Assembly: GCA_919902985.1 (NCBI GenBank)
Contig: CAKKSC010000022.1
Coordinates: 3,436 to 67,435, forward strand
Direction of reading: 5' to 3'
DNA: 64,000 bases
Source of the DNA: Desulfuromonadales bacterium
GTDB lineage: Bacteria > Desulfobacterota > JAENJC01
Part shown: piece after piece, positions 714 through 58,169 of the stretch
Layout: each line of letters starts with the position of its first letter
Numbering within the stretch: the first letter of the stretch is position 1
Notes under the pieces: model-generated
Seen by the model: the letters and a program-made list of their open reading frames with translations, nothing else
What the model was told of the DNA's origin: nothing
Database searches by the model: none
Translations under genes and position numbers: made by a program

Positions 714-1838
714 CTATTTTGAGGACTCCATTGCCATTTCAAGGAAGTGACCAAAGGCATTTTTAGTAAGAGCCGTATACTGGACAGGGTCCACAACAAC
801 CCCGGTGCGAGTGATGCTTGCACTGCTGCCTCGTCCTCCACCCATGGCTGCCATCATCCCAACGGCCTGAGTGATACCTCCTGCCACCTTGTCGCCGGTT
901 GATGTCTCATCCTTGATCTCTTTAACAAAGTCTTTCTGAGCGATGATCGGGTATTTGAGAAGGAATTCGGGATTTTTCCCGTTAGTCATGCACTCCTGCT
1001 TCCCGGAAAAAGGCGCCTTCCAGCATTTCATTGACTCGTTCGCCACGAACATGACCTGGCCCCGTACTGCAAGCCGCACCTCTCCTTTTACCGATGCCGT
1101 ATCTCTTGAGGCATGCTTCTGCATCCCGTCGCTGCTCCCCTCAAGTCTGGCGAAATCAACCATGATATCGACGTGGGCTGCGTCAGCCTTCAGGGAATCG
1201 ATAAGACGTCCCTCGTGCATCAATGGAGAATTGCCTGATGCCTGTGAGAAGGCCATTGAAAGGGCTTTCCCGGTTCCTACATAAGCAGGATTAAAGACCT
1301 TCTGTCCTTTTGGAGCAAGCACCTTGTACTTTGCCTTGCTCCCTGGAGGTGTGAACTCAAATGGGCTGTCCTTACCGCCTTCGTGCATCTTCAGGAAGTG
1401 CTCATTAGATGCAAGTTCTGAAGCAGGGACAATAGCCCGCCCGGATGCCTTGATACCCTGTTCCGCCTGCAAACAGAGGTCCTCTGCAAGCTGCTGCAAC
1501 TGTTCATCGCTTATGCCGCGCAGGTAATAGAATGAGCTTACTTTAGCATCAACCCGCCCTTTGCTTTCACTGGACGGAGCAAAGGCTCCAACACCTGTCT
1601 CAGCGCTGGCACTGGTCATCTCACCGACAAGGACATTGCAGGATGTGATGGCGATCTTGTCAAGATTCTTATTGTTCTTGGTGTTACGTGCATCGATGAA
1701 CTGGACGGCCTGGGAGGCGGCTGACTGAGAAGGGTCGAATTTTGGGTCAGGCTTAGTCATCCCCCCACAGCCGCTGAGAATGCCTCCAATAATGATCGGA
1801 TATACTATCTTTACTGGTATTCTGGTTCTGATTTTCAT
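714..1838 (-). CDS. lipoprotein of unknown function
   Basis: ORF 714..1889. Best start is the internal MKIRTRIPVKIVYPIIIGGILSGCGG (signal peptide + lipobox LSGC) preceded by AAGGAGAAAAC. No family recognised. Confidence 0.6.
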   Translation of the reverse strand: MKIRTRIPVKIVYPIIIGGILSGCGGMTKPDPKFDPSQSAASQAVQFIDARNTKNNKNLDKIAITSCNVLVGEMTSASAETGVGAFAPSSESKGRVDAKVSSFYYLRGISDEQLQQLAEDLCLQAEQGIKASGRAIVPASELASNEHFLKMHEGGKDSPFEFTPPGSKAKYKVLAPKGQKVFNPAYVGTGKALSMAFSQASGNSPLMHEGRLIDSLKADAAHVDIMVDFARLEGSSDGMQKHASRDTASVKGEVRLAVRGQVMFVANESMKCWKAPFSGKQECMTNGKNPEFLLKYPIIAQKDFVKEIKDETSTGDKVAGGITQAVGMMAAMGGGRGSSASITRTGVVVDPVQYTALTKNAFGHFLEMAMESSK

Positions 1839-2049
1839 GTTTTCTCCTTTTTGATTTTTATTGTCAGCCGGAAAGATGATTGTGAGCAAAACCCTTTCTT
1901 GTTATCATTGTTCCAACAGCCTTGGAATTTAGCTTTAGCGTACAAATCAGATGAGTCCAGTTCAATAGCCGGATAAATCATGATTTGTTGACGCGGCTAT
2001 TATCAAAGAGTTCGGGACACCTGTAAATAGCAGGAATTAACCTTTTTGC

Positions 2050-12963: not shown

Positions 12964-13004
12964 TCTAACCTCCTTCCTTGTAGGGGCGAGGCGTTGCCTC
13001 GCCC

Positions 13005-25247: not shown

Positions 25248-25529
25248 ATGCAAACAGCAATTTTGAAAACTGAGATTTATAAAGAAATATCCTTGCTGCG
25301 TGAGGACAAGTTAAGCGAGGTCAAAGACTTCATAGAATTTATCCTATCCCGCCAGAAACCTTCAAAAAAGGATGTTGTGCAATTAAAGGGAATTTGGGCG
25401 GACAAGGGTTTTGAAAAAATCGGAAATCTTGAGAAAGAACTTAAATCCATTCAAAAAATGACAATGCAGTCTATTATAAAAGCGAAAGGGCCGTCCAGGT
25501 CAATATTGCCATTATGCGGGCCTTTGTAA
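25248..25529 (+). CDS. DUF2281-like small protein (antitoxin-type), with a non-native 3' end
   Basis: N-terminal [27 protein letters not shown] pattern; the tail overlaps a decayed ORF6N-family remnant. Confidence 0.4.
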
Positions 25530-25689: not shown

Positions 25690-25825
25690 GCCTCCCCTCT
25701 TAAGATAAGAGGGTTTATGCCCTGTGGGTAGATTGAGGGGCGTTATGAAAGTGTTCCAGTGGGGAGTGAATTAGCTATGGTGTCCCCGGAATTTCTGAAG
25801 GGCGTATTAGGGGCGCTAAAGTGGT

Positions 25826-37132: not shown

Positions 37133-37190
37133 TGGTCAGGGGTCAGTGATCAGTGGTCAGTTACTGACAACCGGCCACTGACCACCTTTT
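37133..37190 (+). terminator. palindromic repeat (family B) acting as galU terminator
   Basis: TGGTCAGGGGTCAGTGATCAGTGGTCAGTTACTGACAACCGGCCACTGACCACC followed by TTTT; nested stems GTGGTCAG / CTGACCAC. Confidence 0.5.
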
Positions 37191-43621: not shown

Positions 43622-44010
43622 ACAAGATCCTTATTGTCGAGGACAACGAGATGAACCTGAAGCTTATCAGGACCGTGCTGAAGGCAAAAGGATTTCTGTT
43701 AGCGGAGGCCAGGGACGGAGAAGAGGCCCTGAAAATGGCAGTCGCTGAGAGGCCGGACATAATCCTTATTGACATCCAGATCCCAAAGATAGACGGTCTT
43801 GAAGTAACCAGAAGGATTAGGGCAATAGATGACCTTAAAGATAGACAGATAATAGCTATTACAGCCCATGCTATGGAGGGAGACAGGAATAAGATCCTTG
43901 AGGCGGGGTGTGATGGCTACATAGCAAAACCAATAAACACAAGAACCTTCATTGACGAGATTGAAGCGATCTTAAAACAGAAGGATGAAAGGCTGAAGGA
44001 TGAGGGCTGA
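43618..44010 (+). CDS. single-domain response regulator (REC)
   Basis: ILIVEDNEMN...LIDIQIPKIDG...KP receiver motifs; start overlaps the HK stop. Confidence 0.8.
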   Translation: MNKILIVEDNEMNLKLIRTVLKAKGFLLAEARDGEEALKMAVAERPDIILIDIQIPKIDGLEVTRRIRAIDDLKDRQIIAITAHAMEGDRNKILEAGCDGYIAKPINTRTFIDEIEAILKQKDERLKDEG

Positions 44011-45079
44011 AGGCATCCCACATCCCCCGTCCTTACGGGACATCGGCGAATTCGGCCTGATTAAGAGGATTGCACGGAAGGCAAAGAGAAAAGATACATC
44101 CGTCCTTATTGGGATCGGTGATGACGCGGCGGTGCTTACCCCCCCCATCTCCCCCTTATTAAGGGGGGGCGAAGGGGGGGTGGCGCCCCTACTGGTAACA
44201 ACAGATTCGCTCATAGAGGATGTGCATTTCAGACGGGATTATCAGCCGGAAGCCATAGGATGGAAGGCCCTGGCAGTAAATATAAGCGATATTGCCGCAA
44301 TGGGGGGAGTCCCAGAGCATTACCTCCTTTCGCTTGGGGTCCCGGAAGGGATATCAATCGAGTATATAGACCGTTTTGTTAGGGGTATGACTGAAGCAGC
44401 TGAGGAATATGGGCTCTCCATGATCGGGGGGGACACCACCTCATCTCCTGACAAGTTTTATATATCCGTTACCGTATTGGGGAAGGGAAGCGAGACCCTC
44501 TTACTAAGGAAAGGTGCAAGGGCTGGAGATGTTATATTTGTCACAGGGACGTTAGGGGATTCGGCGCTGGGGCTTAAGATATTAGAAGATAAGAAGGTAA
44601 GCATTTGGGAAGATGAACGTTTCTCAACCGCTCAACCTCTCAACCGCTCAACCTCTCAACTCATAAACCGCCATCTCAGGCCCACTCCAAGGGTCAAGGA
44701 AGGCATACAACTGGCAAAGACCGGCATGGTTACATCTATGATAGATATAAGCGACGGACTCCTGTGTGACCTTGGGCATATATGCGAAGAGAGCAGGGTG
44801 GGGGCCAGGGTACGGATAGACGAGCTTCCACTGTCACAGGGATTCAATACCTTCTCGGCCAAATATGGCGGAATAGAGCTTGCCTTGAGCGGTGGTGAGG
44901 ATTACGAACTTTTGTTTACAGTGCGAAGCAAAGATGTTAAAAGCTTCATGAGTATGACCGAAGGGACAAAATATACGCCCATAGGCGAGGTCATGAAGGA
45001 CAGGGTAATTGAGGTAATTGGAGCCGATGGCAGCAGGTATCTTCCCAAAAGTAGCGGATACGAGCACTTCAGAAGGTAA
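44000..45079 (+). CDS. thiL: thiamine-monophosphate kinase with two internal repeat insertions
   Basis: GIGDDAAVL...LVTTDSLIEDVHF and GGDTTSSPD ThiL/AIR-synthase-like motifs; 359 aa (longer than usual). Confidence 0.8.
   Translation: MRAEGIPHPPSLRDIGEFGLIKRIARKAKRKDTSVLIGIGDDAAVLTPPISPLLRGGEGGVAPLLVTTDSLIEDVHFRRDYQPEAIGWKALAVNISDIAAMGGVPEHYLLSLGVPEGISIEYIDRFVRGMTEAAEEYGLSMIGGDTTSSPDKFYISVTVLGKGSETLLLRKGARAGDVIFVTGTLGDSALGLKILEDKKVSIWEDERFSTAQPLNRSTSQLINRHLRPTPRVKEGIQLAKTGMVTSMIDISDGLLCDLGHICEESRVGARVRIDELPLSQGFNTFSAKYGGIELALSGGEDYELLFTVRSKDVKSFMSMTEGTKYTPIGEVMKDRVIEVIGADGSRYLPKSSGYEHFRR
44139..44180 (+). repeat. GC-rich palindromic mini-element in-frame in thiL
   Basis: CCCCCCCCATCTCCCCCTTATTAAGGGGGGGCGAAGGGGGGG encoding PPISPLLRGGEGGV. 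Confidence 0.6.
44623..44661 (+). repeat. tandem repeat (CTCAACCGCTCAACCT)x2.4 inside thiL
   Basis: ctcaaccgctcaacctctcaaccgctcaacctctcaact encoding QPLNRSTSQLINR. Confidence 0.6.
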
Positions 45080-45965
45080 AGAGAGACTGCCGGCTATCTC
45101 TGACCTGGTTAGAGAGAGGCATGGGGCCTTGCTCCAGAGGGACACAGCGGCCATCCATTACTCGGAAGCCACCTTTAAGGCAATAAGGGATATCCTCTTT
45201 GAAAGAGAAGGGTTTGATTTAGATTCGTATAAAGACAAATGCATCCAGAGGAGGATATCATTCAGGATAAGGACATCAGGATGCAAGAACACTGAAGAGT
45301 ATATTGAACTCCTCAATAAGAAGGAAGAGGAGGTAAAGAAGCTTCTTAACGCCTTAACTATTAATGTAACGGAGTTTTTCAGGAACCAATCCACCTTTGA
45401 CAAGCTGAAAGATATCGTATTTCCTGACATATTTGCAGCAAATGGAGGGGGTAGAACGGTAAGGATATGGAGCGCCGGGTGCGCCAGCGGGGAAGAGCCT
45501 TATACCATTGCCATCATCCTGAAAGAGTTTTTCCCTGAAGAGTTAAAAAGATTCAACATAGAAATAACGGCAACCGATGTAGATGAAGGGGTTCTGAAAA
45601 AGGCCGCTGAAGGTCATTATCAAAGGGACAAGCTGGTCGGCATGGTTCCCGAGCTGAGGGTCAGGTTTTTTAAGGAAGATGGCGATAAGTACGGGCTTTC
45701 CAACGAGATAAAAAAAATGGTAACTTTCAGGAAAGAGGATATATTTCAGGAAAGACTGAACAGGGACAAAGACCTTATCATCTGCAGGAACCTGCTGATA
45801 TATTTTTCCAGAGAGAAACAGGAGTGGGTACTGAATGAATTCTGGAAAACCCTCAACCCCGGCGGATTTCTTATCCTTGGCAGGGCAGAGATACTGGTAG
45901 GAGAGAGCAGAAAACTGTTTTCAACCATATGCCCGAGAGAAAGGATATATAGAAAATCGTTTTGA
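45018..45965 (+). CDS. cheR: chemotaxis protein methyltransferase CheR
   Basis: CheR N-terminal helical domain plus SAM-MTase (RIWSAGCASGEEPYTIAI); start overlaps the thiL 3' end and is uncertain. Confidence 0.85.
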   Translation: MEPMAAGIFPKVADTSTSEGKERLPAISDLVRERHGALLQRDTAAIHYSEATFKAIRDILFEREGFDLDSYKDKCIQRRISFRIRTSGCKNTEEYIELLNKKEEEVKKLLNALTINVTEFFRNQSTFDKLKDIVFPDIFAANGGGRTVRIWSAGCASGEEPYTIAIILKEFFPEELKRFNIEITATDVDEGVLKKAAEGHYQRDKLVGMVPELRVRFFKEDGDKYGLSNEIKKMVTFRKEDIFQERLNRDKDLIICRNLLIYFSREKQEWVLNEFWKTLNPGGFLILGRAEILVGESRKLFSTICPRERIYRKSF

Positions 45966-46021
45966 AACTATTGTAGAGACGCCCAGCCGGGGCGTCTCTA
46001 CAATAATAAAGGAGGTTCATT

Positions 46022-47278
46022 ATGAGAGTGGAACTTGGTCAAAAGTTTATTATCGGATTCATACTGGTAATAGGGGCTGTGGTGATGGTCCCTTACCTGA
46101 TCGGCTTTCTCCAGATGGAGGGCTGGATAAACCAGCTTATTTCTACTTTGGCAGCCATTATTGTGGGGCTCACGATAGGAATATTCATGGCAAGGAGCTT
46201 TAGCAAGGACTTCAGGGAGATTACTTACTCCGCAGAGATGATAAGCAAGGGGGACCTGACTCATAAGATTCCCCCTTACAGTAAGGTGTTTCCGGATGAA
46301 ACTGCAGACATTGCTGACGCTATAAACAGGATGCTCTCAAACCTGCAGGATCTGGTCAGGCACATAAAAGAGGTGTCGGACAGGGTCTCTGAGGCAGCTC
46401 AGGGACTTTCTGCGACTGCCGAAGAGATGAACGCATCTACCGAGGAGATCGGTTCTACCATGGAGCATGTCTCAAAGGGGGCCGAGCAGCAGGTCGAGCT
46501 GGCGGAAAAGACATCAAGGCTTATAAAGGAGATGGCATCGTCCATAGAGCTTATAGCTATAAGCGCAAAAGATGCTGCGGATTCGGCGACTTCAACCAGC
46601 CATACAGCAGAAAATGGCGGGAATATGGCACGGGCTGCCATGGAAAAAATGAGAAAGGTGTTTGACAGTATAGATGATTCCAGGGTGTCCGTCATGAACC
46701 TCGGCGACAAGGTAGGTCAGATCGGGAAGATTGCCGATGTTATAACGAGGATCGCCCAACAGACCAACCTGTTGGCCCTGAACGCAACCATCGAAGCAGC
46801 CAGGGCCGGTGAATATGGAAGGGGATTTGCTGTGGTTGCAGAGGAGGTGCGCAAGCTTGCGGAGAGCACGGCCAACTCTGCTGAGGAGATCACTACTATC
46901 ATCGAGGAAGTAGAAAAGGAAAGCGGGAAGACACTGGGGTCTATGAAGGAAAGCACAAGGGAGATAGAGGCAGGGAAAGAGGTCATAAATACTACAACAA
47001 AATCGTTTGAGGATGTAGTAAGGATCGTCATGGAGACAACGATGAAGGTTAAGAAGATATCCGATCTATCCCAGAAAGGGACTGAGGGGGCAGAAAAGAT
47101 GGTCAAGGCCATAGATGAGATAGCAAAAGTGGCGGAAGACAATGCCGCGGCTACAGAGCAGATATCTGCAGCAACTGAGCAACAGACCGCCTCCATGGAG
47201 GAAATGGCAAGGGCAGCCCAGGAGCTGTCCGATACCTCCGAGCAACTGAAAGGCGTTGTATCAAGGTTCAGTGTATAG
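46022..47278 (+). CDS. methyl-accepting chemotaxis protein
   Basis: Two TM helices, HAMP, and the conserved MCP signalling domain ([35 protein letters not shown]). Confidence 0.85.
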
Positions 47279-47285
47279 GGGACAT

Positions 47286-47717
47286 ATGCAGCAGGTAATG
47301 ACATTTCAGATTGGGAACGAGTTTTACGGCATTGATGTCGCAAAGGTGAGTGAGATTGTGGAGTTTACTCAACTGACGCCTTTACCCAAGGCCCCTGTAT
47401 GGATAAACGGGATATTGAACCATCATGGACGGATAGCAACCGTATTGAACCTCTCCACTTTTTTCGACTTCATTCCTACCAGTGAGAACAATTTAAGGAG
47501 GATTGCTGTAATAGACAATTCGTTAATGGATATTGGGGTCCTCCTGGAGGGGCATTTAGAAGTTATCTCTGAATGGGAAGCCAAGACAGAGATATCGGCT
47601 GATCCAGAATTTTTGAAAAGCAAATACGTCGCCAACGTACTTGTTTCCAGGGGTAGAGTCGTCAATCTGCTTGATACGGACAGACTCATAACTGACCTGG
47701 ATGGATATTTTGTGTAA
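47286..47717 (+). CDS. cheW: chemotaxis coupling protein CheW
   Basis: CheW-like domain (FQIGNEFYGIDVAKVSEIV...GRIATVLNL); ATG after AGGGGA. Confidence 0.85.
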   Translation: MQQVMTFQIGNEFYGIDVAKVSEIVEFTQLTPLPKAPVWINGILNHHGRIATVLNLSTFFDFIPTSENNLRRIAVIDNSLMDIGVLLEGHLEVISEWEAKTEISADPEFLKSKYVANVLVSRGRVVNLLDTDRLITDLDGYFV

Positions 47718-47761
47718 TAAAATTCACATGAGCCATAGGCTCACAAAGGAGCCTGAAAATT

Positions 47762-47875
47762 AACCCACCCTCACTTCAATCCTCTACCCACGTGGCATAA
47801 ATCATTGAGGGAGAGGAAACCTCTCTTATTCCCTCCCCTTCACAAGGGGAGGGTTAGGGTGAGGATGGGGTAAAT
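47762..47875. repeat. intergenic cluster of GC-rich hairpins related to the in-frame palindromic elements
   Basis: aacccaccctcacttcaatcctc ... GAGAGG-aaac-CCTCTC ... CCCTCCCCTT-caca-AGGGGAGGG ... gggttagggtgagg. Confidence 0.4.
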
Positions 47876-47907
47876 AGGGGATTTTCGGAGCAAAATAAGG
47901 AGGGAAT

Positions 47908-48279
47908 ATGTCTTATAAGGTACTTGTAGTTGATGACGCAGCCTTTATGAGGAACATGATCAAGGATGTCTTTGGCTCAATGCCCGGGTTTACAGTGATA
48001 GGGGAGGCTTCCAACGGCATAGAGGCGATAGAGAAATACAAGGAACTGCGGCCTGACCTGGTCACCATGGATATCGTGATGCCGCTCAAGAGCGGAATAG
48101 AAGCGGCCAGAGAGATAACCAACGCGGACCGTGAGGCCAGGATAATAATGTGCAGCGCCCTGGGGCAGGAAAGTCTTGTTATGGAGGCCATTGACGCCGG
48201 AGCCAGTGACTTTATAGTAAAGCCCTTCAAGGCAGAGAAGGTACAGGAAGTTGTAAGCAGGGTTCTTAGGATTAAATAA
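47908..48279 (+). CDS. cheY: chemotaxis response regulator CheY
   Basis: Single REC domain (VLVVDDAAFMR...VTMDIVMPLKSG...KP). Confidence 0.85.
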   Translation: MSYKVLVVDDAAFMRNMIKDVFGSMPGFTVIGEASNGIEAIEKYKELRPDLVTMDIVMPLKSGIEAAREITNADREARIIMCSALGQESLVMEAIDAGASDFIVKPFKAEKVQEVVSRVLRIK

Positions 48280-48303
48280 GGTGTAGAGGGGTCGTTTTTA
48301 TTT

Positions 48304-50265
48304 ATGGATATGTCCAAATATAAAAGCATGTTTTTAACTGAGGCCAGGGAACATCTTGGTAATATGAACCAGGTTGTGCTTGTTCTGGAAAAAGATCCTG
48401 GAGACAAGGGGAATATAGACTCACTTTTCAGATCGGCCCATTCAGTTAAAGGCATGGCTGCATCCATGGGTTATGATGGTATAGCTGAGCTTAGCCATAA
48501 AATGGAAGATATGATGGACAAGTTTCGCAAGGGGGAGATGCCTATAACGCCGGAGGCGACCGACATCCTTCTGGAAGGAGTTGACGCCCTTGGGCAGATG
48601 ATAGATGCGGTGGAGCAGGACAGGATATCTGATGTGGATGTCTCCAGGACAATAGAACGGATAAAGGGGTACGGGGCACAAAAGTCAGTGGTCAGTCTGA
48701 ACCCTGCTACTGAAGTCGAGCCACCGGCCACTGACTACCGGCCACTGACCACCGGGTTCAATATCTCCATAGAAATCTCCCAGGACTCTCCGGCGCCTTC
48801 TGTCAGGGCCGTCCTGATACTTAGAAAACTAAAAGAGCTTGGAGAGGTCATATCGACAAACCCTTCCGAGGCGGACCTGAAAGGCAGGAAGTTGTCAGGG
48901 CCGTTGTCTGTTAAGTTTGTATCTGACACGGCTCAGGAGAAGATTGAAGAGGTTGTCAGGGGGATGGGAGAGGTGTCTTCCCTAAAGGTCGAGCCTCTGA
49001 AAGATGAGGTTCAGGCTCCTGATTTTAGAACTCCAATCGCCGCTCCCCAAAAAGAATCGGTGAAAAGTGAAGCAGAGGAACCGAAGGGATCGAGACCCGA
49101 AATCCCTTCAATAGGGCCTTTGCAGCAGACCGTTAAGGTCAATACCGCCCTTCTCGACTATTTTGTGAATGCCATTGGCGAACTAATCATAAATAAGTCC
49201 AGGCTCCATGATATCTCACGGGGGATACCTTCCAAGGAGTTAAGTGATGGGCTAAACCATCTTGACAGGCTTGTAAGAGACCTGCAAAACCAGGTGATGA
49301 GCGTCAGGATGATGCCTATGGAAAGCTTAATGGAGAGGTTCCCAAGGATTGTCCGGGACCTGGCCAGGAAAGAGGGGAAAGAAGTCACTCTTAACATGGA
49401 GGGGCAGGACATAGAACTGGACCGTTCCATTATAGAAGGACTGGGAAATCCTCTGATACATATAATCAGGAATGCTGTGGACCACGGCATTGAACTGCCT
49501 GACGACAGAAGGGCCGCCGGCAAACCTCTCCCTGCCAAGATTTTAATAAAGGCATCCAGGGAAAAGGACCAGGTTTTCATAGAGATATCCGATGACGGAA
49601 AGGGAATGGACCCTGAAAGGCTTAAGGAAGCAGCAATAAACAAGGGGCTGATAACCCCTGAACAGGCAGCAGGGATGAGTAAAAAGGAAGCGCTCCTCCT
49701 TACATGTATTCCCGGCTTCAGCACGGCCAAGGTCGTTTCCGACATATCAGGAAGAGGCGTCGGGATGGACGCCGTGAAGTCGGCAATAGAGCCTATCGGC
49801 GGCAGTATTGATATAGATTCCAGGCCGGGGGCAGGGACAAGGATTACACTTAAGCTCCCTCTGACAGTCGCCATAATCCAGTCCCTTTTGATTGAAGCCG
49901 CCCAGGAGATATATGCCATTCCGATAAGCAGGGTGCTGAAGACTATGGAGATAGACAGGGATACTGTGAAGACCAGTCAGAAGCAGAGTCTGATAGATTT
50001 TGACGGCTTTCTTATACCTCTCCTCAGCATTAGGAAGATATTTACACTGCCGCCCTTGGCAGGGCAGGCCAAATTTATACCGGTTGTAGTCACTGAGGTT
50101 AAAGGTAAGATCGTAGGACTAGTGGTAGACAGGCTGGTTGGACAACAGGAAACCTTTATAAGGCCGCTTGGAAGGCCCCTCAACAAGATAGGCGGCCTGT
50201 CCGGAACCACTGTCCTCGGTAACGGCCGGACCATTTTTTTATTGGATGTGGGGAATATAGTATGA
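48304..50265 (+). CDS. cheA: chemotaxis histidine kinase CheA
   Basis: P1 Hpt (SAHSVKG), dimerisation domain, HATPase and C-terminal CheW-like domain; a repeat-derived linker insertion after P1. Confidence 0.9.
   Translation: MDMSKYKSMFLTEAREHLGNMNQVVLVLEKDPGDKGNIDSLFRSAHSVKGMAASMGYDGIAELSHKMEDMMDKFRKGEMPITPEATDILLEGVDALGQMIDAVEQDRISDVDVSRTIERIKGYGAQKSVVSLNPATEVEPPATDYRPLTTGFNISIEISQDSPAPSVRAVLILRKLKELGEVISTNPSEADLKGRKLSGPLSVKFVSDTAQEKIEEVVRGMGEVSSLKVEPLKDEVQAPDFRTPIAAPQKESVKSEAEEPKGSRPEIPSIGPLQQTVKVNTALLDYFVNAIGELIINKSRLHDISRGIPSKELSDGLNHLDRLVRDLQNQVMSVRMMPMESLMERFPRIVRDLARKEGKEVTLNMEGQDIELDRSIIEGLGNPLIHIIRNAVDHGIELPDDRRAAGKPLPAKILIKASREKDQVFIEISDDGKGMDPERLKEAAINKGLITPEQAAGMSKKEALLLTCIPGFSTAKVVSDISGRGVGMDAVKSAIEPIGGSIDIDSRPGAGTRITLKLPLTVAIIQSLLIEAAQEIYAIPISRVLKTMEIDRDTVKTSQKQSLIDFDGFLIPLLSIRKIFTLPPLAGQAKFIPVVVTEVKGKIVGLVVDRLVGQQETFIRPLGRPLNKIGGLSGTTVLGNGRTIFLLDVGNIV
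48684..48753 (+). repeat. palindromic repeat (family B) in-frame in the cheA P1-P2 linker
   Basis: GTCAGTGGTCAGT...CCGGCCACTGACTACCGGCCACTGACCACC; shares CCGGCCACTGACCACC and the GTGGTCAGT arm with the galU terminator repeat at 37133-37190. Confidence 0.5.
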
Positions 50266-50305
50266 GGTAAGGGGCGGGTTTGATACCCGCCTATAACGGG
50301 GTTAT

Positions 50306-50908
50306 ATGAAACGGCTAAACGAAAGCGATCTCGATTTTCTCAGGGAGCTCTCCAATATAGGTGTAGGACACGCGGCTACAGCCCTTTCCCAGCTTATCGG
50401 AAGGCAGGTAGGGATGAGGGTCCCGAAAGTCAGTATAGTAGACCTGGCGTCAGTTCCCGAACTAATGGGTGGGAGCGAAAAAATTGTGAGCGGTGTTTAC
50501 CTCCAGGTATTAGGAGATGCCAGAGGCGCTATCCTGCTGATATTCCCTGATGACAGCTCAAGGGCACTGATAAGCTTGCTGCTGAAAAGAGTTGACGAGC
50601 CTCTTTCAGAGATGGGAGCATCAACACTCAAGGAAGTTGGAAATATCCTTGCATCTGCCTATTTGAGCGTCCTTGGGAACATGCTTGATATAACCCTGAT
50701 CCCCTCGATCCCCTCTCTGGCCCACGACATGGTCGGCGCAGTAGTAGATATTGTATTATCCGATCTGGGCGAGATTGGCGACACTGCATTTGTCTTTGAG
50801 ACTGAATTTTATGACATGACTAATGATATAAAGGGGCATTTTTTCCTCCTTCCTGGCCCTGACTCCATAGATGTTATAATGAGAGCCATCGGGAGCAAGA
50901 ATGGATAA
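50306..50908 (+). CDS. cheC: CheC-like chemotaxis phosphatase
   Basis: CheC/CheX fold motifs (ELSNIGVGHAATALSQL; second repeat EVGNILASAYL). Confidence 0.7.
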   Translation: MKRLNESDLDFLRELSNIGVGHAATALSQLIGRQVGMRVPKVSIVDLASVPELMGGSEKIVSGVYLQVLGDARGAILLIFPDDSSRALISLLLKRVDEPLSEMGASTLKEVGNILASAYLSVLGNMLDITLIPSIPSLAHDMVGAVVDIVLSDLGEIGDTAFVFETEFYDMTNDIKGHFFLLPGPDSIDVIMRAIGSKNG

Positions 50909-51398
50909 GGTAGTGGTCAGAATAGCGGATTACAGGATTGCTGAGGCGCCGGCAACCCTCGTCACTTACGGTCTTGGGTCGTGCGTAGCCGTTGCCCTCT
51001 ATGACACTGAGACAAGGATGGGCGGTTTATGCCATATAATGCTTCCCAGCAGCTCCAAAGCAAGGGATTCAGGGAACCCAAAAAAGTTCGCCGACATCTG
51101 CATCTCCGAGATGTTAGAGGATATGGAGAATAGAGGCTGTAATGTGGACAGGATGGTGGCCAAGATAGCCGGGGGCGCCAGGATGTTTGATCTCCCGAAC
51201 AAGGAAAAATCATCTTCTATAGGGGAGAGAAACCGTGATGCAGTATTGATCGAGCTTGCAAAGAGAAGGATCCCGCTGATTGCGGAGGATACCGGCGAAA
51301 ACTATGGACGGACTATGGAGTTCCACCTCGGGAACGGTGATATGCTGGTAATATCTCTGCGTGGCGGAACAAAGGTGTATAGAGACGAGGCACTATGA
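50901..51398 (+). CDS. cheD: chemoreceptor glutamine deamidase CheD
   Basis: GLGSCVAVALYD...GGLCHIMLP catalytic Cys/His region. Confidence 0.8.
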   Translation: MDKVVVRIADYRIAEAPATLVTYGLGSCVAVALYDTETRMGGLCHIMLPSSSKARDSGNPKKFADICISEMLEDMENRGCNVDRMVAKIAGGARMFDLPNKEKSSSIGERNRDAVLIELAKRRIPLIAEDTGENYGRTMEFHLGNGDMLVISLRGGTKVYRDEAL

Positions 51399-52147
51399 AT
51401 GTTAATGTATTAACAGAACTCCTGGATGGCGTAAAAAACGGGACCGTTTCAACCGAATCAGCCCTGTCCAGGCTTAAGGCGCTCCCTTTTGAGGACATGG
51501 GTCAGGCCGTAATTGACAGCCACAGGGAGTTGAGGCAGGGGTTCCCAGAGGTCATCCTCGGAGAAGGGAAAAGCACAGCGCAGATAATAAGCATAATCGA
51601 AAAACTGCGTTCCAACGGCTCCAGCATCCTGGCCACCAGGATTGATGCTGCAAAGGCGGTAGCGATCATCAAGGCAGTCCCATCTGTTCAATACAACAGC
51701 GATGCCAGAACCCTTACCTTTATGGAAGGAGAGTTTAAAGAAAAAGGAAAGGGTATCATCATGGTGATATCCGCCGGAACATCAGATATCCCTGTTGCGG
51801 AAGAGGCCGCAATTACGGCCTTTATGATGGGGAACAGGGTGGACAGGCTTTATGACGTTGGAGTGGCCGGTATCCATAGACTCTTTTTCCACAGGGAGCG
51901 TATAACCTCTGCCGGCGTCCTGATTGTCTGCGCCGGGATGGAAGGCGCCCTCCCGAGCGTTGTGGGAGGGATAGTGGCCAGACCGGTCATTGCAGTGCCT
52001 ACGAGCGTTGGGTACGGTGCCAGCTTTGGCGGCATCAGCGCCCTTCTCGGGATGCTCAACTCCTGTGCCCCTGCTGTAACGGTGGTGAATATTGACAATG
52101 GCTTCGGGGCAGGTTATGCGGCAAGCCTGATAAATAGAAAAGATTGA
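51395..52147 (+). CDS. larB: nickel-pincer cofactor biosynthesis protein LarB (PurE-like)
   Basis: PurE-like core (AGMEGALPSVV...VPTSVGYG...VVNIDNGFGA) with an N-terminal extension. Confidence 0.8.
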   Translation: MNVNVLTELLDGVKNGTVSTESALSRLKALPFEDMGQAVIDSHRELRQGFPEVILGEGKSTAQIISIIEKLRSNGSSILATRIDAAKAVAIIKAVPSVQYNSDARTLTFMEGEFKEKGKGIIMVISAGTSDIPVAEEAAITAFMMGNRVDRLYDVGVAGIHRLFFHRERITSAGVLIVCAGMEGALPSVVGGIVARPVIAVPTSVGYGASFGGISALLGMLNSCAPAVTVVNIDNGFGAGYAASLINRKD

Positions 52148-52148
52148 T

Positions 52149-53375
52149 ATGATAGCATACTTTGATTGTTTTTCAGGTATCAGCGGTGATATGATTGTGG
52201 GGGCCTTCCTGGATGCCGGAGTTCCGTTTGAGTGGCTGAAGGATGAGCTGGAGAAACTCTCACTGAAAGGATATAAGCTGGGGGTAGAGGACGTTAAACG
52301 GGGAGGAATAGGAGGGAAGAAATTCCATGTAGAGACCCCCCCCCTCAATCCCCTCCTTAGTAAGGGGGGGGTAGTTGAGAGAAGACTTGGAGACATAACG
52401 GGGATAATCGAGAAAAGCACCCTCTCGAAAGATGTTAAAGAGCTGAGCATTCTGGTATTTCAAAGACTTGCCGGGGCAGAGGCAAGGGTACACAGGATCG
52501 GGGTTGACGATATACACTTCCATGAGGTAGGCGGAGTAGACTCCATTATTGATATTGTGGCAGCATCCCTGTCCCTCTCTTTTCTGAAAATAAAAGAGGT
52601 TTATGCATCAGAGATTCCAGTGTCTCACGGCATAATATTGAGTAGTCACGGGAGGTTGCCTCTGCCCGCGCCTGCCACGATGGAGCTGCTGAAGGATGTC
52701 CCTGTTTGTCAAAGTTCAACAACAGGCGAGCTTGTGACACCAACCGGTGCAGCCTTTCTTTCCGTAGTATGCAAAGGGTTTGGTCCCATCAGACCTATGA
52801 GGCTTAAAGGTATTGGATATGGGGCTGGAGAAAGGGATAATGAAGGTCTTCCGAACCTGCTGAGGGTAATGATTGGAGAGCCACCCCCCCTCAATCCCCC
52901 CCTTAATAAGGGGGGGGCGAAAGGGGGGGTAGAGGTTGACTCCGTCATGGTCATAGAGTCCAACATAGACGACATGAGCCCTGAGATTTACGGTTTTGTC
53001 ATGGAGCGGCTCTTTGATGAGGGGGCGCTGGATGTTTCTCTGATACCTGTCTACATGAAAAAAGGGAGGCCTGGAACCATTGTCCAGGTCTTGTGTGAGG
53101 CTGGGATGGAAAAGTCGCTTGGAGAGTTGCTCCTTAAGGAGACCTCGACAATAGGTGTCAGGTTTTACAGGACGGACAGATTGAAGCTGCAGCGGGAAAC
53201 CGTTGAGGTAAAGACCAGGTTTGGCACAGTAAGAGCGAAGGTGGCAAGGTCTCCATGGGGGAACAAGGCGCGGCCTGAGTACGAAGACTGCAGGAAGGTG
53301 GCTATGGATATGGGAGCTCCCCTTCTGGATGTCTATACAGAAGCTGTTAAGGAGTTTAAGGAAAATGACGAATAG
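52149..53375 (+). CDS. larC: nickel-pincer cofactor biosynthesis protein LarC (DUF111) carrying two in-frame palindromic insertions
   Basis: N-terminus MIAYFDCFSGISGDMIVGAFLDAGV matches the LarC family. Confidence 0.8.
   Translation: MIAYFDCFSGISGDMIVGAFLDAGVPFEWLKDELEKLSLKGYKLGVEDVKRGGIGGKKFHVETPPLNPLLSKGGVVERRLGDITGIIEKSTLSKDVKELSILVFQRLAGAEARVHRIGVDDIHFHEVGGVDSIIDIVAASLSLSFLKIKEVYASEIPVSHGIILSSHGRLPLPAPATMELLKDVPVCQSSTTGELVTPTGAAFLSVVCKGFGPIRPMRLKGIGYGAGERDNEGLPNLLRVMIGEPPPLNPPLNKGGAKGGVEVDSVMVIESNIDDMSPEIYGFVMERLFDEGALDVSLIPVYMKKGRPGTIVQVLCEAGMEKSLGELLLKETSTIGVRFYRTDRLKLQRETVEVKTRFGTVRAKVARSPWGNKARPEYEDCRKVAMDMGAPLLDVYTEAVKEFKENDE
52336..52371 (+). repeat. GC-rich palindromic mini-element in-frame in larC (copy 1)
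   Basis: CCCCCCCCCTCAATCCCCTCCTTAGTAAGGGGGGGG encoding PPLNPLLSKGG. Confidence 0.6.
52884..52929 (+). repeat. GC-rich palindromic mini-element in-frame in larC (copy 2)
   Basis: CCCCCCCTCAATCCCCCCCTTAATAAGGGGGGGGCGAAGGGGGGG encoding PPPLNPPLNKGGAKGG. Confidence 0.6.
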
Positions 53376-54789
53376 AGGTCCGAAGGTCCTGATCGTTGAT
53401 GGAGATAGAGTAATCAGGAATGTAGTCATGGAGATGCTGACTAATTGGGGATATGAGGGGATAGAGGCCGGGAACGGCAAGGATGCCCTGCGCAGAGTGA
53501 TGGTTGATAAGCCGGACCTTATTCTTCTTGACCTGATCATGCCTGATATTAACGGGTTTGAGGTATGCTGGAAAATAAGAAAGGAAATGAATGTCCTTGC
53601 AACACCGATTATCATTTTGACCGCAAGAGGCGAAAAAGATGACATCCTGAAAGGGCTTGAGGTTGGAGCAAACGATTATATAGTTAAGCCCGCAGAACCG
53701 TTGGAGCTTGAGGCAAGGATAAAGACACATCTCCGCATCAAGAGACTGTATGACGATGCAAGCGCAGAGAAAGAAGATCTGACAAGGCTCCTGGAGCTAT
53801 CCAAGGCAGTTTCATCTACCCTTAATTCACGGGACATATTTTATACTATTGTCAAGAGTGTGGGAAAGGTAATAGATGTTGACAGATGCTCCATTGTCAG
53901 GGTTGGAAGGAAGAAGGGGGTAGGTTATGTTGTGACAACCTACGAAAACCCCGGCATAAAGAATCTTGCCATAGACCTCGAGAAGTACCCTGAGATTAGA
54001 AGTGCCCTTGAGGTAAAGGGGACCGTTATAATAGACGATATACAAAACGATCCGAGGATGACCTCCGTGAAAGATATTATTAAGGAACTTGGTTTAAGCT
54101 CCCTGCTGGTTATTCCCATAATACTAAGTAAGGAGGTTATAGGAACCCTTATGCTCAGGATATCCAGAAAGGAAACGAACTTTTCCCCAAGGGAAGTCAA
54201 GCTATGTCAGGCCATTGCCAGCCTTGCAGCCAGCGCCCTGACAAATGCCCACCTCTTCGAATCCGGCGAGATCTCTAATCTGGAACTGGAAAAACTAGCC
54301 ATAACCGATGGCCTGACAGGGGCATACAACCATCGTCACTTTCGCACAAGACTGGACGAGGAGTTTACCCGCGCCAAAAGATACGCTACACCGCTGTCCT
54401 GTATAATGATGGATATAGACCACTTTAAACAAATCAACGATGCATTCGGCCATGCTCAGGGCGATATGGTACTTAGCGAGATAACCGATGTGATAAAGAA
54501 TAATGTGAGGAAGAGCGATATCGTGGCCCGCTACGGAGGAGAAGAGTTTGTGGCGCTCCTGCCAAATACTGATGAAGAGGGGGCCTTTGTACAGGCCGAA
54601 AGATTAAGAGAGGCTGTCAAGGGTTACAGATGTTCTGGCAGAGACAGGTGTATAATGGTAACTATCAGCCTGGGGGTTTCAACCTTCCCGTCTCCAGAGA
54701 TATCTACTGCCGATGACCTGGTGGGTAAGGCAGATGATGCACTGTATAGGGCGAAGAGAAGCGGAAGGAACAGGACGGTAGAGGCATAG
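53368..54789 (+). CDS. response regulator with GAF and GGDEF domains (diguanylate cyclase)
   Basis: REC (VLIVDGD...LDLIMPDINGF), GAF, and GGDEF with an intact RYGGEEF active site. Confidence 0.85.
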   Translation, partial: TNRGPKVLIVDGDRVIRNVVMEMLTNWGYEGIEAGNGKDALRRVMVDKPDLILLDLIMPDINGFEVCWKIRKEMNVLATPIIILTARGEKDDILKGLEVGANDYIVKPAEPLELEARIKTHLRIKRLYDDASAEKEDLTRLLELSKAVSSTLNSRDIFYTIVKSVGKVIDVDRCSIVRVGRKKGVGYVVTTYENPGIKNLAIDLEKYPEIRSALEVKGTVIIDDIQNDPRMTSVKDIIKELGLSSLLVIPIILSKEVIGTLMLRISRKETNFSPREVKLCQAIASLAASALTNAHLFESGEISNLELEKLAITDGLTGAYNHRHFRTRLDEEFTRAKRYATPLSCIMMDIDHFKQINDAFGHAQGDMVLSEITDVIKNNVRKSDIVARYGGEEFVALLPNTDEEGAFVQAERLREAVKGYRCSGRDRCIMVTISLGVSTFPSPEISTADDLVGKADDALYRAKRSGRNRTVEA

Positions 54790-54800
54790 GAGGTTATTAA

Positions 54801-57653
54801 TTGAATTATAAAGAAACAATAAACCTTCCCTTAACAGAGTTCCCCATGAGGGCGAACCTTAACCAGAAGGAACCTGAACTCCTTAAGGAATGGGATGAGG
54901 CAGGACTTTATCAAAAGATCAGGGACAAGTCAAAGGGAAGGCCGAGATACATCCTCCATGACGGGCCACCTTACGCCAACGGCCATATACACATAGGGCA
55001 CTCCATAAACAAAATTTTGAAAGATATTGTTGTAAAGTCGCGGCAGATGTCCGGCTTCGACGCCCCTTATATCCCGGGATGGGACTGCCACGGCTTGCCT
55101 ATAGAACTTCAGGTGGATAGGGACCTTGGCTCAAAGAAGCAGGGAATGAGCAAGCTTGATATCCGCAGGCACTGCCGTGAGTATGCCGGAAAGTTCATAG
55201 ATATCCAGAGGGACGAGTTTAAGAGACTCGGCATCCTCGGAGACTGGGGAAGGCCCTATCTAACGATGGACTTCGCCTATGAAGCCGCTACAGCAAAGGA
55301 GCTTGGAAAGTTCTTTGAAAAGGGCGCAGTTTACAAGGGCCGCAAGCCTGTCCACTGGTGCTCATCCTGCCAGACGGCCCTGGCAGAGGCGGAGGTGGAG
55401 TACAATGAAAAGACATCGCCGTCGATTTACGTGAAGTTTAAGGTAGGGGCGTATGGCAATACGCCCTTACAAAAAATAGTTGGTGACCGGCATGCCTCCA
55501 TCGTTATCTGGACAACCACCCCCTGGACCATACCTGCCAATATGGCTATATCGGTACACCCTGATTATGACTATTCGATTGTTGAAACTCCCCCCATCCT
55601 CCTTCTTGCTAAAGAAGGGGAGCCGGAGGCGGGGGAGTTCTTGATCCTTGCCACAGAACTCGTCCCTTCCTGCATGGAGAAATGGGGCATTTCAGATTAC
55701 AAGACCATAGCGAAGGTCAAGGGCAATGAACTCAAGGGTATAGTCTGCAGGCATCCTTTTGTCGAGCGCTACTCTGTTGTCGTCACAGGCACCCATGTTG
55801 CCCTCGATGCCGGGACCGGCTGTGTTCACACTGCCCCGGGTCATGGAGAGGACGATTACCGCATAGGACTCGAATATGGTCTTGAGATATATACCCCGGT
55901 TGACAAGGCAGGGAGATTTACTGATGACGTCCCGTTCTTTGCCGGTGAGCAGGTATTCAAGGCCAACAAGGGTGTCATAGAAAAGCTTAATGAGGTTGGG
56001 GCTCTGATAAAGGAGGAGTCCATTCAGCACTCCTATCCTCACTGCTGGAGATGCAAGGGGCCGATCATCTTCAGGGCCACGGAGCAGTGGTTCATTTCCA
56101 TGGAAAGGAACGACCTCAGGAAGAAGGCCATTGATGCAATAAACAAAGAAATCCGCTGGATACCACACTGGGGGAAGGACCGTATTCTTGGAATGATTAC
56201 CAACAGGCCTGACTGGTGTATATCGAGGCAGAGGACATGGGGTGTGCCAATTACTGTCTTTTACTGCAAGGGTTGCGGCGAGATCCTTTCTGATAAGGCT
56301 GTATTCGACCACGTGGTCTCACTCTTCAAAAATGGCGGAGCTGATGTCTGGTTTGATAAGGAGGTAAGCGAGCTACTGCCTCCCGGTTCTAAATGCAAGA
56401 AGTGCGAAGGAAGCGAATTCGAAAAGGAAATGGACATACTTGACGTATGGTTCGACTCAGGGGTGAGCCATGCAGCTGTATTGGAGTCGAGGGAAGAACT
56501 CTCCTCCCCTGCCGACCTTTATTTAGAGGGGAGCGACCAGCACAGGGGATGGTTCCATTCCTCCCTCCTTGCCTCTATGGGGACCAGGGACAGGGCCCCT
56601 TACAAGGCAGTCCTGACCCACGGTTTCGTGGTGGACGGCGAGGGGAAGAAGATGTCCAAATCTTCAGGAAATGTCGTCGCCCCGCAGGAGATAATAAAAA
56701 AATATGGTGCAGAGGTCTTGAGGCTCTGGGTTGCGGCAGAGGACTACAGGGACGACATCCGTATTTCAGAAGGAATAGTCGTCCAGCTCTCCGATGCATA
56801 TAAGAAAATAAGAAACACCTTCCGTTATTTATTGAGTAACATTTATGACTTTGACCCTTCAAAACAGCTGGTGCAGTACAAAGATATGCTTGAGATAGAC
56901 AGGTGGGCGTTGCTTCGGCTCTATACCCTTTCAAACAGGGTTGAAAAGGCTTATAACGATTTCGAGTTCCATCAGATATACCATTCGACCCACGCCTTCT
57001 GCGTAAACGATCTTTCATCCTTTTACTTCGATATCCTGAAGGACAGACTTTATACAGCCAGAAAAGATTCTGTCGAGAGGCGTTCGGCCCAGACGGCACT
57101 CTTCCACATTCTCAATTCAATGGTAAGATTGATGGCCCCCATATTCTCCTTCACATGCGAGGAAGTATGGAAATTTATGCCAACAACTCCCCCCAACCCC
57201 CTCTTTAGTAAAGAGGGGGTGCCGAAGGCGGGGGAGTTTAAAAGAGAAGAGTCCGTCCATCTTGTCTCTTTCCTTAAATCTAACGAGGAATGGAAGGATG
57301 ATGAGCTTCTGAAAAGCTGGGAGATGCTTCGATCAGTCAGGGAAGAGGTTCTAAAGGTCCTTGAGGTGGCCAGAAGAGAGAAGATGATAGGCAACTCCCT
57401 TGAAGCGGAGGTAACTCTTTACGCTCCGGATGACCTCTACAAGTTGCTCAGGGTCTACGAAGGTCAACTGAAATACATATTCATCGTATCCAGTGTCATC
57501 CTCTACAGTGAAGATAGAGGGAAGCCTGTCGAGGTCACGGTAGCACAGGCATCCGGGCAGAAGTGCGAGAGGTGCTGGAACTACGACATGACGGTTGGTA
57601 TTAACGGTGAACATCCGACTGTGTGTGACAGGTGCGTGAGGGCGGTGAGTTAA
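54801..57653 (+). CDS. ileS: isoleucine--tRNA ligase (type 1) carrying two in-frame palindromic insertions
   Basis: HIGH ([11 protein letters not shown]) and KMSKS motifs, C-terminal zinc finger CERCWNY...CDRC; TTG start. Confidence 0.95.
55588..55637 (+). repeat. GC-rich palindromic mini-element in-frame in ileS (copy 1)
   Basis: CTCCCCCCATCCTCCTTCTTGCTAAAGAAGGGGAGCCGGAGGCGGGGGAG encoding [17 protein letters not shown]. Confidence 0.6.
57187..57236 (+). repeat. GC-rich palindromic mini-element in-frame in ileS (copy 2)
   Basis: CTCCCCCCAACCCCCTCTTTAGTAAAGAGGGGGTGCCGAAGGCGGGGGAG encoding [17 protein letters not shown]; near-identical architecture to copy 1. Confidence 0.6.
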
Positions 57654-58169
57654 GTGGACGGGAAAAAAAGATATGTCCTTTTAATCGCCATAGCCGGGCT
57701 GGTTCTGCTCCTGGACCAGCTCACAAAGATTTATATAGTCTCGAGATTCAGCCTGTATGAGTCGCTCACCATTATAGAGGACTTTTTTCACATCACATAT
57801 ATTAGAAACCCCGGGGCAGCATTCGGGATATTTGCCGGAAGCGCCGCTTCATTCAGGATCCCATTCTTCCTGACCCTCTCTTTTGTTGCAATCATTGGAA
57901 TGCTGTTTTTTTATAAGACTGTAGCAGAAGAACTCCTTCGTATCGCCCTTTCACTTATACTGGGAGGGGCTTTAGGGAACATGATAGACAGGGCGAGGTT
58001 TGGCGAGGTAATTGATTTTATTGACGTCCATTGGTATAGTAATCACTGGCCCGCCTTCAATGTGGCAGATTCCGCCATTACCATAGGTGTCGGGCTCATG
58101 ATACTGGATATGCTTATAAAAGAAAACGGCTCTCACCGCAAAGGCGCAAAGGACGCAGAGAAAGACTAA
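57654..58169 (+). CDS. lspA: lipoprotein signal peptidase II
   Basis: NPGAAFG and FNVADSAI LspA motifs; GTG start overlapping the ileS stop. Confidence 0.85.
   Translation: MDGKKRYVLLIAIAGLVLLLDQLTKIYIVSRFSLYESLTIIEDFFHITYIRNPGAAFGIFAGSAASFRIPFFLTLSFVAIIGMLFFYKTVAEELLRIALSLILGGALGNMIDRARFGEVIDFIDVHWYSNHWPAFNVADSAITIGVGLMILDMLIKENGSHRKGAKDAEKD

Follow-up and report, generated by a model that had tools for sequence, protein, structure and literature searches.

How do conserved housekeeping genes come to carry short GC-rich palindromes that are read through in frame? The question is raised by a 64,000-nt stretch of contig CAKKSC010000022.1 from a Desulfuromonadales bacterium (GenBank assembly GCA_919902985.1; hereafter the window), which contains five such elements within the open reading frames (ORFs) of thiL, larC (two copies) and ileS (two copies), all at the places where a first-pass annotation of the sequence had located them. 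Comparison with orthologs supports their interpretation as insertions in loop-coding DNA. Copies are present or absent among close relatives, lie in loops and in open frames, and recur nearly identically across genes and phyla. The elements probably represent a dispersed family of 36-54-nt non-autonomous, selfish palindromic repeats, resembling repetitive extragenic palindromes (REP) and Rickettsia palindromic elements (RPE), which are translated through and tolerated in loops. The host genes and their elements are listed below.

44000-45079, + strand: ORF of thiL (thiamine-monophosphate kinase, 359 aa; PDB ThiL match, E = 3e-55)
44138-44181, + strand: thiL element, type A, A-C8-ATCT-C5-TTATTAA-G7-CGAA-G7-T; peptide TPPISPLLRGGEGGV
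52149-53375, + strand: ORF of larC (nickel-pincer cofactor nickel-insertion protein, 408 aa; PDB LarC match, E = 6.5e-87)
52335-52372, + strand: larC site 1 element (larC-1), type A, truncated, A-C9-TCAAT-CCCCTCC-TTAGTAA-G8-T; peptide TPPLNPLLSKGGVV, element part TPPLNPLLSKGGV
52883-52930, + strand: larC site 2 element (larC-2), full type A, A-C7-TCAAT-C7-TTAATAA-G8-CGAAA-G7-T; peptide PPPLNPPLNKGGAKGGV
54801-57653, + strand: ORF of ileS (isoleucyl-tRNA synthetase, 950 aa; PDB IleRS match, E = 9e-299)
55586-55639, + strand: ileS site 1 element (ileS-1), type B, degenerate, AACTCCCCCC-ATC-CTCCTTCTTGCTAAAGAAGGGGAG-CCGGAGGC-GGGGGAGTT
57185-57238, + strand: ileS site 2 element (ileS-2), type B, intact, AACTCCCCCC-AA-CCCCCTCTTTAGTAAAGAGGGGG-TGCCGAAGGC-GGGGGAGTT

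Architecture, frames and folding of the elements

The core CCCCYYTTANTAARRGGGG (up to two mismatches) occurs four times in the window against 0.06 expected, and none of 100 shuffles reached four; hairpins with C-rich arms number seven, compared with ~0.55 in shuffles. The first-pass annotation had assigned a single architecture to the five coding copies, but two subfamilies can be distinguished, type A in thiL and larC and type B in ileS, with larC-1 truncated and ileS-1 degenerate. Type A consists of A-C7-9, a 4-5-nt spacer, C5-7, TTAnTAA, G7-8, the spacer CGAA(A) and G7-T; its idealised form, A-C7-spacer-C7-TTAnTAA-G7-spacer-G7-T, is a near-perfect palindrome centred on n. In larC-1, the 3' spacer and outer G run are missing. 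Type B comprises 54 nt, AACTCCCCCC-(AA/ATC)-CCCCCTCTTTA-n-TAAAGAGGGGG-(TGCCGAAGGC/CCGGAGGC)-GGGGGAGTT, in short AACTCCCC...CCCCCTCTTTAnTAAAGAGGGGG...GGGGAGTT, and is predicted to fold into a three-way junction in which the outer stem meets an inner hairpin and a GCC-GAA-GGC mini-hairpin. The ends of the units are conserved as terminal A...T or AACT...AGTT.

The orientation had been described as the same in every copy, and this holds for all five, because the CGAA-type spacer sits on the 3' side. The accompanying claim of a common reading frame holds only roughly: the frame divides the thiL copy into TTA-TTA-AGG (L-L-R) and the larC type A copies into CTT-ANT-AAG (L-x-K). Six-frame translation of the units showed four open frames, all encoding P-P-x-x-P-(P)-L-x-(K/R)-G-G-x-x-G-G, while the third frame on each strand stops at TAA in the central TTAnTAA. 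None of the five coding copies contains a stop and each lies inside a long + strand ORF, and judging from these open frames the Pro/Gly segment would be translated through in each host, as proposed. The IleS proteins of relatives typically have 920-930 aa, compared with 950 aa in the window, and ileS site 1 falls in the CP1/editing-domain region. PF01969 is present in LarC homologs.

Folding as single-stranded DNA gave -16 to -22 kcal/mol (z -2.1 to -6.7) for four copies, in line with the hairpins proposed in the annotation: -16 kcal/mol for thiL, -20.2 kcal/mol (z -3.8) for larC-2, -17.8 kcal/mol (z -4.3), as a three-way junction, for ileS-1 and -22 kcal/mol (z -6.7) for ileS-2. The exception is the truncated larC-1 copy with a weak fold (-9.8 kcal/mol, z -0.8). 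Rfam and tRNA scans of the window revealed no matches.

The five coding copies are confined to 13 kb (44138-57238) of co-directional + strand genes with positive GC skew, and the remaining 51 kb of the window contain no coding copy (rough P ~0.01 for five random points).

Insertion and turnover at loop-coding sites

Syntenic contigs of relatives (L001-L006 and L126-L129) were compared with the window codon by codon. A LarC homolog search revealed a tight clade of 62-87% identity, followed by a fall to ~50%. The close relatives derive from Hainich groundwater and similar metagenomes, and the nearest named IleRS and LarC sequences, from Geobacter, Nitrospirota and Desulfobacterales, are ~50-60% identical. 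In syntenic relatives with ThiL, LarC and IleS proteins ~83-92% identical, the thiL, larC-1 and ileS-2 copies are absent, and all five sites lack an insertion in distant orthologs (those of Geobacter, Nitrospirota and Desulfobacterales, ~45-60% identical).

The thiL site is empty in L005, L126, L128 and L129, which have 6-9 unrelated residues there (filled VLTPPISPLLRGGEGGVA vs empty VINVGVTGRS), corresponding to a net gain of ~8 codons in the window. The larC-1 site is empty in L001, L004, L126, L127 and L128, again with a net gain of 8 codons; in place of TPPLNPLLSKGGV, all sampled relatives but P0014 have V/I-K/E-E-E-Q (e.g. IKEEQ). The ileS-2 element is cleanly absent from L004, L126, L127, P0126, P0127 and all outgroups, the empty site reading PAVAGREE and the net gain in the window amounting to 16 codons. 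The ileS-1 element is absent in L127 and outgroups, and distant orthologs lack the insertion at larC site 2. Neither ileS site is filled in outgroup IleRS at ~60% identity (Geobacter, Nitrospirota).

Alignment with known structures placed the thiL element in a gap relative to ThiL (PDB 1vqv/3c9r) and both LarC elements in gaps relative to PDB LarC chains; the comparison with IleRS 8c9e showed a gap of 13 residues at ileS-1 and of 18 residues at ileS-2. In the AlphaFold model of LarC (mean predicted local distance difference test score, pLDDT, 84) only residues 67-74 and 250-259 fall below pLDDT 50. These are the two elements, at sites 1 and 2 respectively, and both are modelled as coil between β-strands. 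The suggestion that the segments are foreign to the orthologous proteins and inserted in loops thus agrees with the relatives, the outgroups and the structures.

Individual copies decay, by truncation, loss of the inner hairpin or insertion into the loop. At ileS site 1 of L126 (12648-15429), only the outer arms are left, AACTCCCC-AG-CCGGAGGC-GGGGGAGTT, the inner hairpin having been lost in frame (27 nt lost), and ileS site 1 of L004 (8412-11247) has an 18-nt insertion, CACCCATCCGGGTATAAA, inside the inner hairpin.

The same codons are occupied by different repeats in different relatives. At larC site 2, type A is found in the window, L001, P0010 and P0014, type B in L004, L127 and L128, a GTAG-type REP (TGTAGGGGCGATTCGCGAATCGCCCCTACT) in L126, CGAACCC heptamers in L129 and other sequence elsewhere. 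At ileS site 1, the occupant is type B, in L129 a type A-like copy, and in P0122 and P0126 a repeat of the DHRPPTTDH type; at ileS site 2, the window has type B, and L129 and P0122 have a repeat of the SGVVESGLSP type. In a LarC tree calculated with the variable columns removed, type A at larC site 2 is polyphyletic, with P0002 (type A) as sister to P0003 (type B); vertical inheritance after one insertion therefore cannot explain the pattern. The turnover may be due to elements inserting again into hairpins already there, to alleles being exchanged by homologous recombination, or to strong filtering that leaves very few permissive loops.

Further repeats were seen in these genes. An in-frame family translated as ...RTERSGVVESGLSP... 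occurs in L129 (IleS site 2 and LarC site 1), P0122, P0013 and P0019, in loops whose counterparts in the window are filled by type A or type B. The ThiL protein of L129 has GSRGQGVKG...TLEPSNP-type repeats, N-terminally and in mid-protein, and a GTAG-type REP lies in frame in thiL of L127.

Type A and type B in other genomes

The first-pass annotation had considered the insertions lineage-specific. A scan of one genome per GTDB species with a strict type A pattern (26 specified bases; chance expectation calculated as essentially none) detected at least 121 copies in at least 119 genome stretches. Among the stretches listed, 53 belong to Cyanobacteria (Nostoc, Calothrix PCC 7716, Crocosphaera WH 8501, Microcoleus, Baaleninema and others) and 43 to Nitrospirota (including Thermodesulfovibrionia), with a scatter of other phyla. 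The family is cross-phylum and not specific to the lineage of the window, and the motif, which the annotation had proposed to search for elsewhere, is widely present and often lies in coding sequence. With a copy counted as in an ORF if the stop-free frame around it spans ≥150 aa and continues for ≥30 aa to both sides, 56 of the 121 type A copies listed (46%) are in long open frames, compared with 68% of random 41-nt segments from the same loci; type A is therefore somewhat depleted from genes, yet far from excluded. The copies use both orientations and both open frames, and their hosts include MetRS, MutS, PurL, topoisomerase I (TopA), CarB, RnfC, a P-type ATPase, PFOR, glycosidases, kinases and a TnpB subfamily.

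The central base of type A is unconstrained (C 34, A 34, G 31 and T 22 among the copies listed). Its flanks are AT...AT in Cyanobacteria and A...T in Nitrospirota, the terminal AT...AT and AA...TT being themselves palindromic. Spacers are variable; arm complementarity is often retained and some copies are perfect palindromes. The same subfamily spacers (TCAAT, TTTAATT, TTTAGTT) and terminal bases (AA...TT, AT...AT) are encountered at different loci and in different genera. Copies are mostly single, with adjacent copies at a few cyanobacterial loci. The type B pattern detected 56 copies in metagenome contigs, of which 47-49 end in AA...TT and 16 lie in stop-free frames of at least 150 aa. The TGCCGAAGGC subfamily of type B occurs as near-identical 50-nt copies in at least seven other genes of metagenome contigs, which identifies it as a copied repeat rather than a product of local convergence.

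In Cyanobacteria (L063, L067, L108, L115 and L013), a subfamily of TnpB (IS200/IS605 OrfB; PF01385, PF12323, PF07282) carries an in-frame type A copy at one fixed position, adjoining the VVE of the RuvC region and encoding the peptide ESPLTPLNKGGTxGGI; the element therefore also travels as a passenger of insertion sequence (IS) copies. TnpB, the only transposase-like cluster among the ORFs of the 119 loci, was considered as an associated transposase and rejected, since it hosts the element in frame instead of neighbouring it. In a Nitrospiraceae metagenome-assembled genome (MAG; L088, 6000-7107), two adjacent cobalamin-pathway-like genes each contain a strict type A copy. One encodes a class I/II aminotransferase and the other a 458-aa protein that looks CobB-like, and the second gene has an extra PPYPPLAKGGKGG segment; several elements can therefore build up in one operon.

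Mode of spread, rival explanations and related repeats

If the elements are selfish repeats of this kind, they would insert as DNA into loop-coding stretches of thiL, larC and ileS and would then be transcribed and translated with the protein, adding a loop of 8-18 residues with the Pro/Gly pattern given above. The C-run and G-run arms encode Pro-Pro...Gly-Gly in any frame and either orientation, and the repeat may survive in genes because these residues are compatible with loops. Stops arise only in the TTAnTAA centre, in one frame per strand, so that about two thirds of random insertions should stay open. Selection would then weed out every copy whose net length is not divisible by three or that lies outside permissive surface loops. 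Movement would take place in trans, by single-strand (HUH type or REP-associated tyrosine transposase, RAYT, type) or repair/recombination-mediated copying, a mode suggested by the hairpin form, the same orientation in co-directional genes and the lack of target duplications.

Several findings weigh against selfish repeats as the explanation. Both type A and type B are polyphyletic at larC site 2 on the LarC tree, and third positions of the larC-2 copy are more conserved than the background. Filled sites have gained 24 or 48 nt net, yet they have lost 2-6 ancestral codons, hence there is no clean cut-and-paste signature; comparison of filled and empty sites revealed small target deletions and no clear target-site duplication. 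A half-site search for a longer parent element found only mutated full copies, and clustering of the ORFs in 119 loci of 8 kb, as opposed to whole genomes, revealed no recurrent RAYT-like or small neighbour family. Viral contigs are nearly free of copies (1 and 3 matches among 2.9 million), which speaks against a phage vector. The counts of coding and intergenic copies for the host genome refer to the 64-kb window, and the translation of the segments is deduced from their sequence.

The conservation within larC-2 would be expected if the hairpins were functional, exapted or selected as a Pro-Pro or hairpin translational pause, an RNA stability signal, a triplex or a recombination hot spot, an explanation that we regard as unlikely. 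Between the window and L001, whose 87% identical LarC was found by protein homology, none of 11 four-fold degenerate sites changed inside the copy, compared with 44 of 162 (27%) outside (P ~0.03). Cyanobacterial orthologs with 55-61% protein identity retain the C and G runs, with 0-1 of 9-10 four-fold sites changed in the copy vs ~70% outside; both members of these pairs were picked by a run-requiring pattern, therefore this result is biased and not to be taken at face value, and only the comparison of the window with L001 is unbiased, and weak. Functional hairpins would also fit the arm complementarity that is often kept despite varying spacers, and G/C-rich intrastrand triplex motifs are reported to be over-represented in cyanobacteria (PMC4666352). 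However, the ileS-1 copy changes at the background rate (3/8 four-fold sites inside vs 96/348 outside), copies are truncated or devoid of the inner hairpin, and three of the five sites are empty in close relatives. The host proteins are unrelated, their sites being alike only in that they are loops, and an intrinsic-terminator T-run is found in none of the five 3' flanks. The four-fold sites give a hint of constraint at the DNA or RNA level, or of homogenisation, rather than of a purely neutral passenger. It is more improbable still that the segments arose locally by repeated homopolymer slippage and quasi-palindrome (template-switch) mutation, converging since only Pro/Gly runs are tolerated. 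Such an origin would be in keeping with the missing transposase, target duplication and parent element, with the same codons being struck repeatedly in different lineages, and with the unconstrained central base and variable spacers. It does not account for 50-nt type B copies with the idiosyncratic TGCCGAAGGC mini-hairpin that are near-identical in at least seven unrelated genes or contigs, or for subfamily spacers and terminal bases that recur across loci and genera, and the empty-site ancestors (IKEEQ, AVAG) hold no C/G runs as a starting point.

The segments might also be removed before the mature protein is formed, as a tiny intron, by byp-like translational bypass or by protein splicing. 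Strong hairpins within coding RNA are reminiscent of yeast mitochondrial byp elements; these and the GC clusters are very small hairpin repeats inside protein genes of an organelle, and byp elements are bypassed, not translated. Deletion of the element (±3 nt) restores a long frame in two copies outside ORFs in Nitrospirota MAGs, L018 (1119-1161) and L073 (816-855), joining the flanking frames into ORFs of 504 and 506 aa, which may represent frameshifted genes, homopolymer sequencing errors or chance. Yet these are 2 rescued copies out of 65 outside ORFs, with 49 boundary combinations each, about the level of chance or sequencing error. All five window copies and 56 of the 121 type A copies listed are in frame, and only the two stop-free frames are ever used, a constraint that would be needless if the segments were removed; removal at the RNA or protein level is therefore very unlikely. 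Net length differences from empty sites are multiples of three, no Rfam family matches, and an intein would have to be far larger. An assembly or binning artefact, with chimeras joined at low-complexity C/G runs, has a negligible probability. Homopolymer runs are error-prone and many matches come from MAGs, but positions 52293-58022 of the window (5,730 nt), four copies included, recur with 100% identity in L134, a contig assembled separately from another sample (Hainich well H52), which excludes an assembly error, a check that the annotation had advised. The protein clusters P0001 and P0121 contain 4 and 11 element-bearing members, reading frames are kept, and the family is present in genomes of cultured cyanobacterial isolates, among them the complete ones of Crocosphaera watsonii WH 8501 (NZ_CP191777) and Calothrix PCC 7716 (AP025018) and that of Baaleninema PCC 7105.

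Palindromic repeats that lie in frame in loops are a known kind of element, and the family fails the defining features of RPE, REP and REPIN, transposable elements of the miniature inverted-repeat type (MITEs) and TMECO. The behaviour had been likened to that of RPE, and RPE and the intragenic GTAG/CGTC REPs are indeed the closest. RPE are ~100-150 bp long, encode ~30-50 residues and are restricted to Rickettsia and relatives (Ogata et al. 2000, summarised in PMC10969869 and PMC3733652). Like them, the present elements are palindromic repeats in frame in unrelated housekeeping genes, translated at fold-compatible sites, with no transposase of their own known. They differ in size (38-54 nt in the window, 36-54 nt in the family; 8-18 residues), in their C-run and G-run arms and in their hosts, namely Cyanobacteria, Nitrospirota, the Desulfobacterota/Nitrospirota-like groundwater lineage and others. 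In-frame palindromic repeats beyond Rickettsia are already known in the form of intragenic GTAG/CGTC REPs (Di Nocera et al. 2013, PMC3733652). REP and REPIN are multicopy hairpins of 20-40 nt, thought to be mobile in trans as single-stranded DNA hairpins (PMC3733652; Bertels and Rainey 2011, PMC3116915), and a minority of REPs are reported to be intragenic, probably at linkers or loops (Opitutus terrae, R. conorii, Thauera; PMC3733652). The present elements are likewise short, imperfect palindromes with comparable dispersal into many copies (≥121 type A, 56 type B) and stable folds. Unlike REP, they have no GTAG/CGTC tag (TAG follows the G run in 5 of the 121 type A copies listed), their arms are homopolymer runs, they are not mainly extragenic, as seen from the copies in ORFs (56/121 type A listed, 16/56 type B, 5/5 in the window), and no RAYT was seen near copies in the 119 8-kb loci.

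TMECO/BoxC repeats, CCCTCNCCC-N3-6-GGGNGAGGG-N3-GGGNGAGGG, are intergenic and occur in Proteobacteria (Holder et al. 2015, PMC4666352). None of the five coding copies fits this pattern, and only the intergenic repeat at 47831-47875 resembles it. The same study links the G/C-rich intrastrand triplex motifs of Cyanobacteria to local genome variability; these share C and G blocks with short loops with our elements, and the C-C-G / C-G-G order of type A could in principle form triplexes. It describes neither the palindrome nor in-frame coding copies, and the core sequence is absent from its supplements. Bacterial MITEs (Nezha, Correia/NEMIS, ERIC) usually have 70-300 bp, terminal inverted repeats matching a parent IS, and target-site duplications (PMC10969869). 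They are also short non-autonomous inverted repeats, and some (ERIC, Anabaena) make in-frame fusions; in the present family the whole unit is one hairpin, with no parent IS found and no duplication evident. The 2024 review of MITEs still gives RPEs as the outstanding case (PMC10969869).

Literature searches for the core DNA sequence and the encoded peptide motif found no relevant paper, broader ones led only to work on RPE, REP, MITEs and triplexes, and the searches did not extend to the sequences of the small dispersed repeats (SDR) of Nostoc. These SDR, which Elhai et al. are said to have described in 2008, are reportedly 21-55-nt hairpin-forming, non-coding dispersed repeats. The family has possibly been described earlier under another name, for example as Nostoc SDR. 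We suggest only tentatively that it constitutes an undescribed, cross-phylum, coding-adapted selfish DNA that has been shaped to give a Pro/Gly loop whatever its frame or orientation, spreads by a route other than REP/RAYT or IS/MITE, given the lack of a GTAG tag, target duplication and parent IS, preferentially replaces earlier repeats at the same loops and is perhaps constrained at the DNA level. Preferential replacement would explain why different repeat families stand at identical codons of sister lineages. In that case core enzymes of Cyanobacteria, Nitrospirota and related groundwater lineages would still be gaining loop insertions from the family, which would act as a general source of them.

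Until now, selfish DNA lying in frame within essential genes has largely passed for a peculiarity of Rickettsia, alongside a few intragenic REPs. In the present case, a palindrome of ~40 nt acts likewise inside core enzymes of at least two large free-living phyla and a groundwater lineage. The interpretation as translated selfish repeats would imply a simple sequence rule for the survival of a repeat in genes, C/G runs giving Pro/Gly in every frame. The recurring loop insertions would affect alignments, homology models and gene calls in MAGs, where long C/G homopolymers are frameshift-prone, and the filled/empty polymorphism in close relatives, together with cultured cyanobacterial carriers, would offer a tractable route to the mobilising activity. 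That different repeat families replace one another at the same codons is surprising and testable.

Other repeats in the window are listed below.

672-698: stem-loop GTCCCCCT...AGGGGGAC, 3' of ORF 714-1889 (- strand)
12978-13010: perfect 15-16-bp hairpin, intergenic, TTGTAGGGGCGAGGC...GCCTCGCCCCTACAA
25695-25713: stem-loop CCCTCTTA-AGA-TAAGAGGG, 3' of ORF 25248-25529 (+ strand)
45969-46005: perfect 15-16-bp hairpin, intergenic, TATTGTAGAGACGCCC...GGGCGTCTCTACAATA
47831-47875: repeat within intergenic 47718-47907, CCCTCCCC-TTCACAA-GGGGAGGG-TTA-GGGTGAGG, with longer arms at 47763-47775 and 47866-47880

The first-pass annotation had regarded the hairpins at 672-698, 25695-25713 and 47762-47875 as related to the coding elements, but they are not clearly members of the family. 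The first two are probably ordinary terminators, because both sit immediately 3' of an ORF, with T-rich sequence after them. The region 47762-47875 belongs to a different, BoxC/TMECO-like repeat family, the repeat at 47831-47875 nearly fitting the TMECO/BoxC consensus of Holder et al. 2015 (PMC4666352). The hairpins at 12978-13010 and 45969-46005 resemble classical GTAG-tagged REPs, because they carry the GTAG motif. An intergenic inverted repeat of GGTCAGT-like heptamers (GGTCAGTGATCAGTGGTCAGT / ACTGACAACCGGCCACTGACC) lies at 37141-37183, and the DHRPPTTDH-type segment at ileS site 1 of P0122 and P0126 is possibly related to it. A small hairpin at 46272-46288, CCCCTTACAGTAAGGTG, lies within ORF 46022-47278, which encodes a conserved 418-aa protein whose relatives have no Pfam match, and may represent either a family core in decay or a match by chance.

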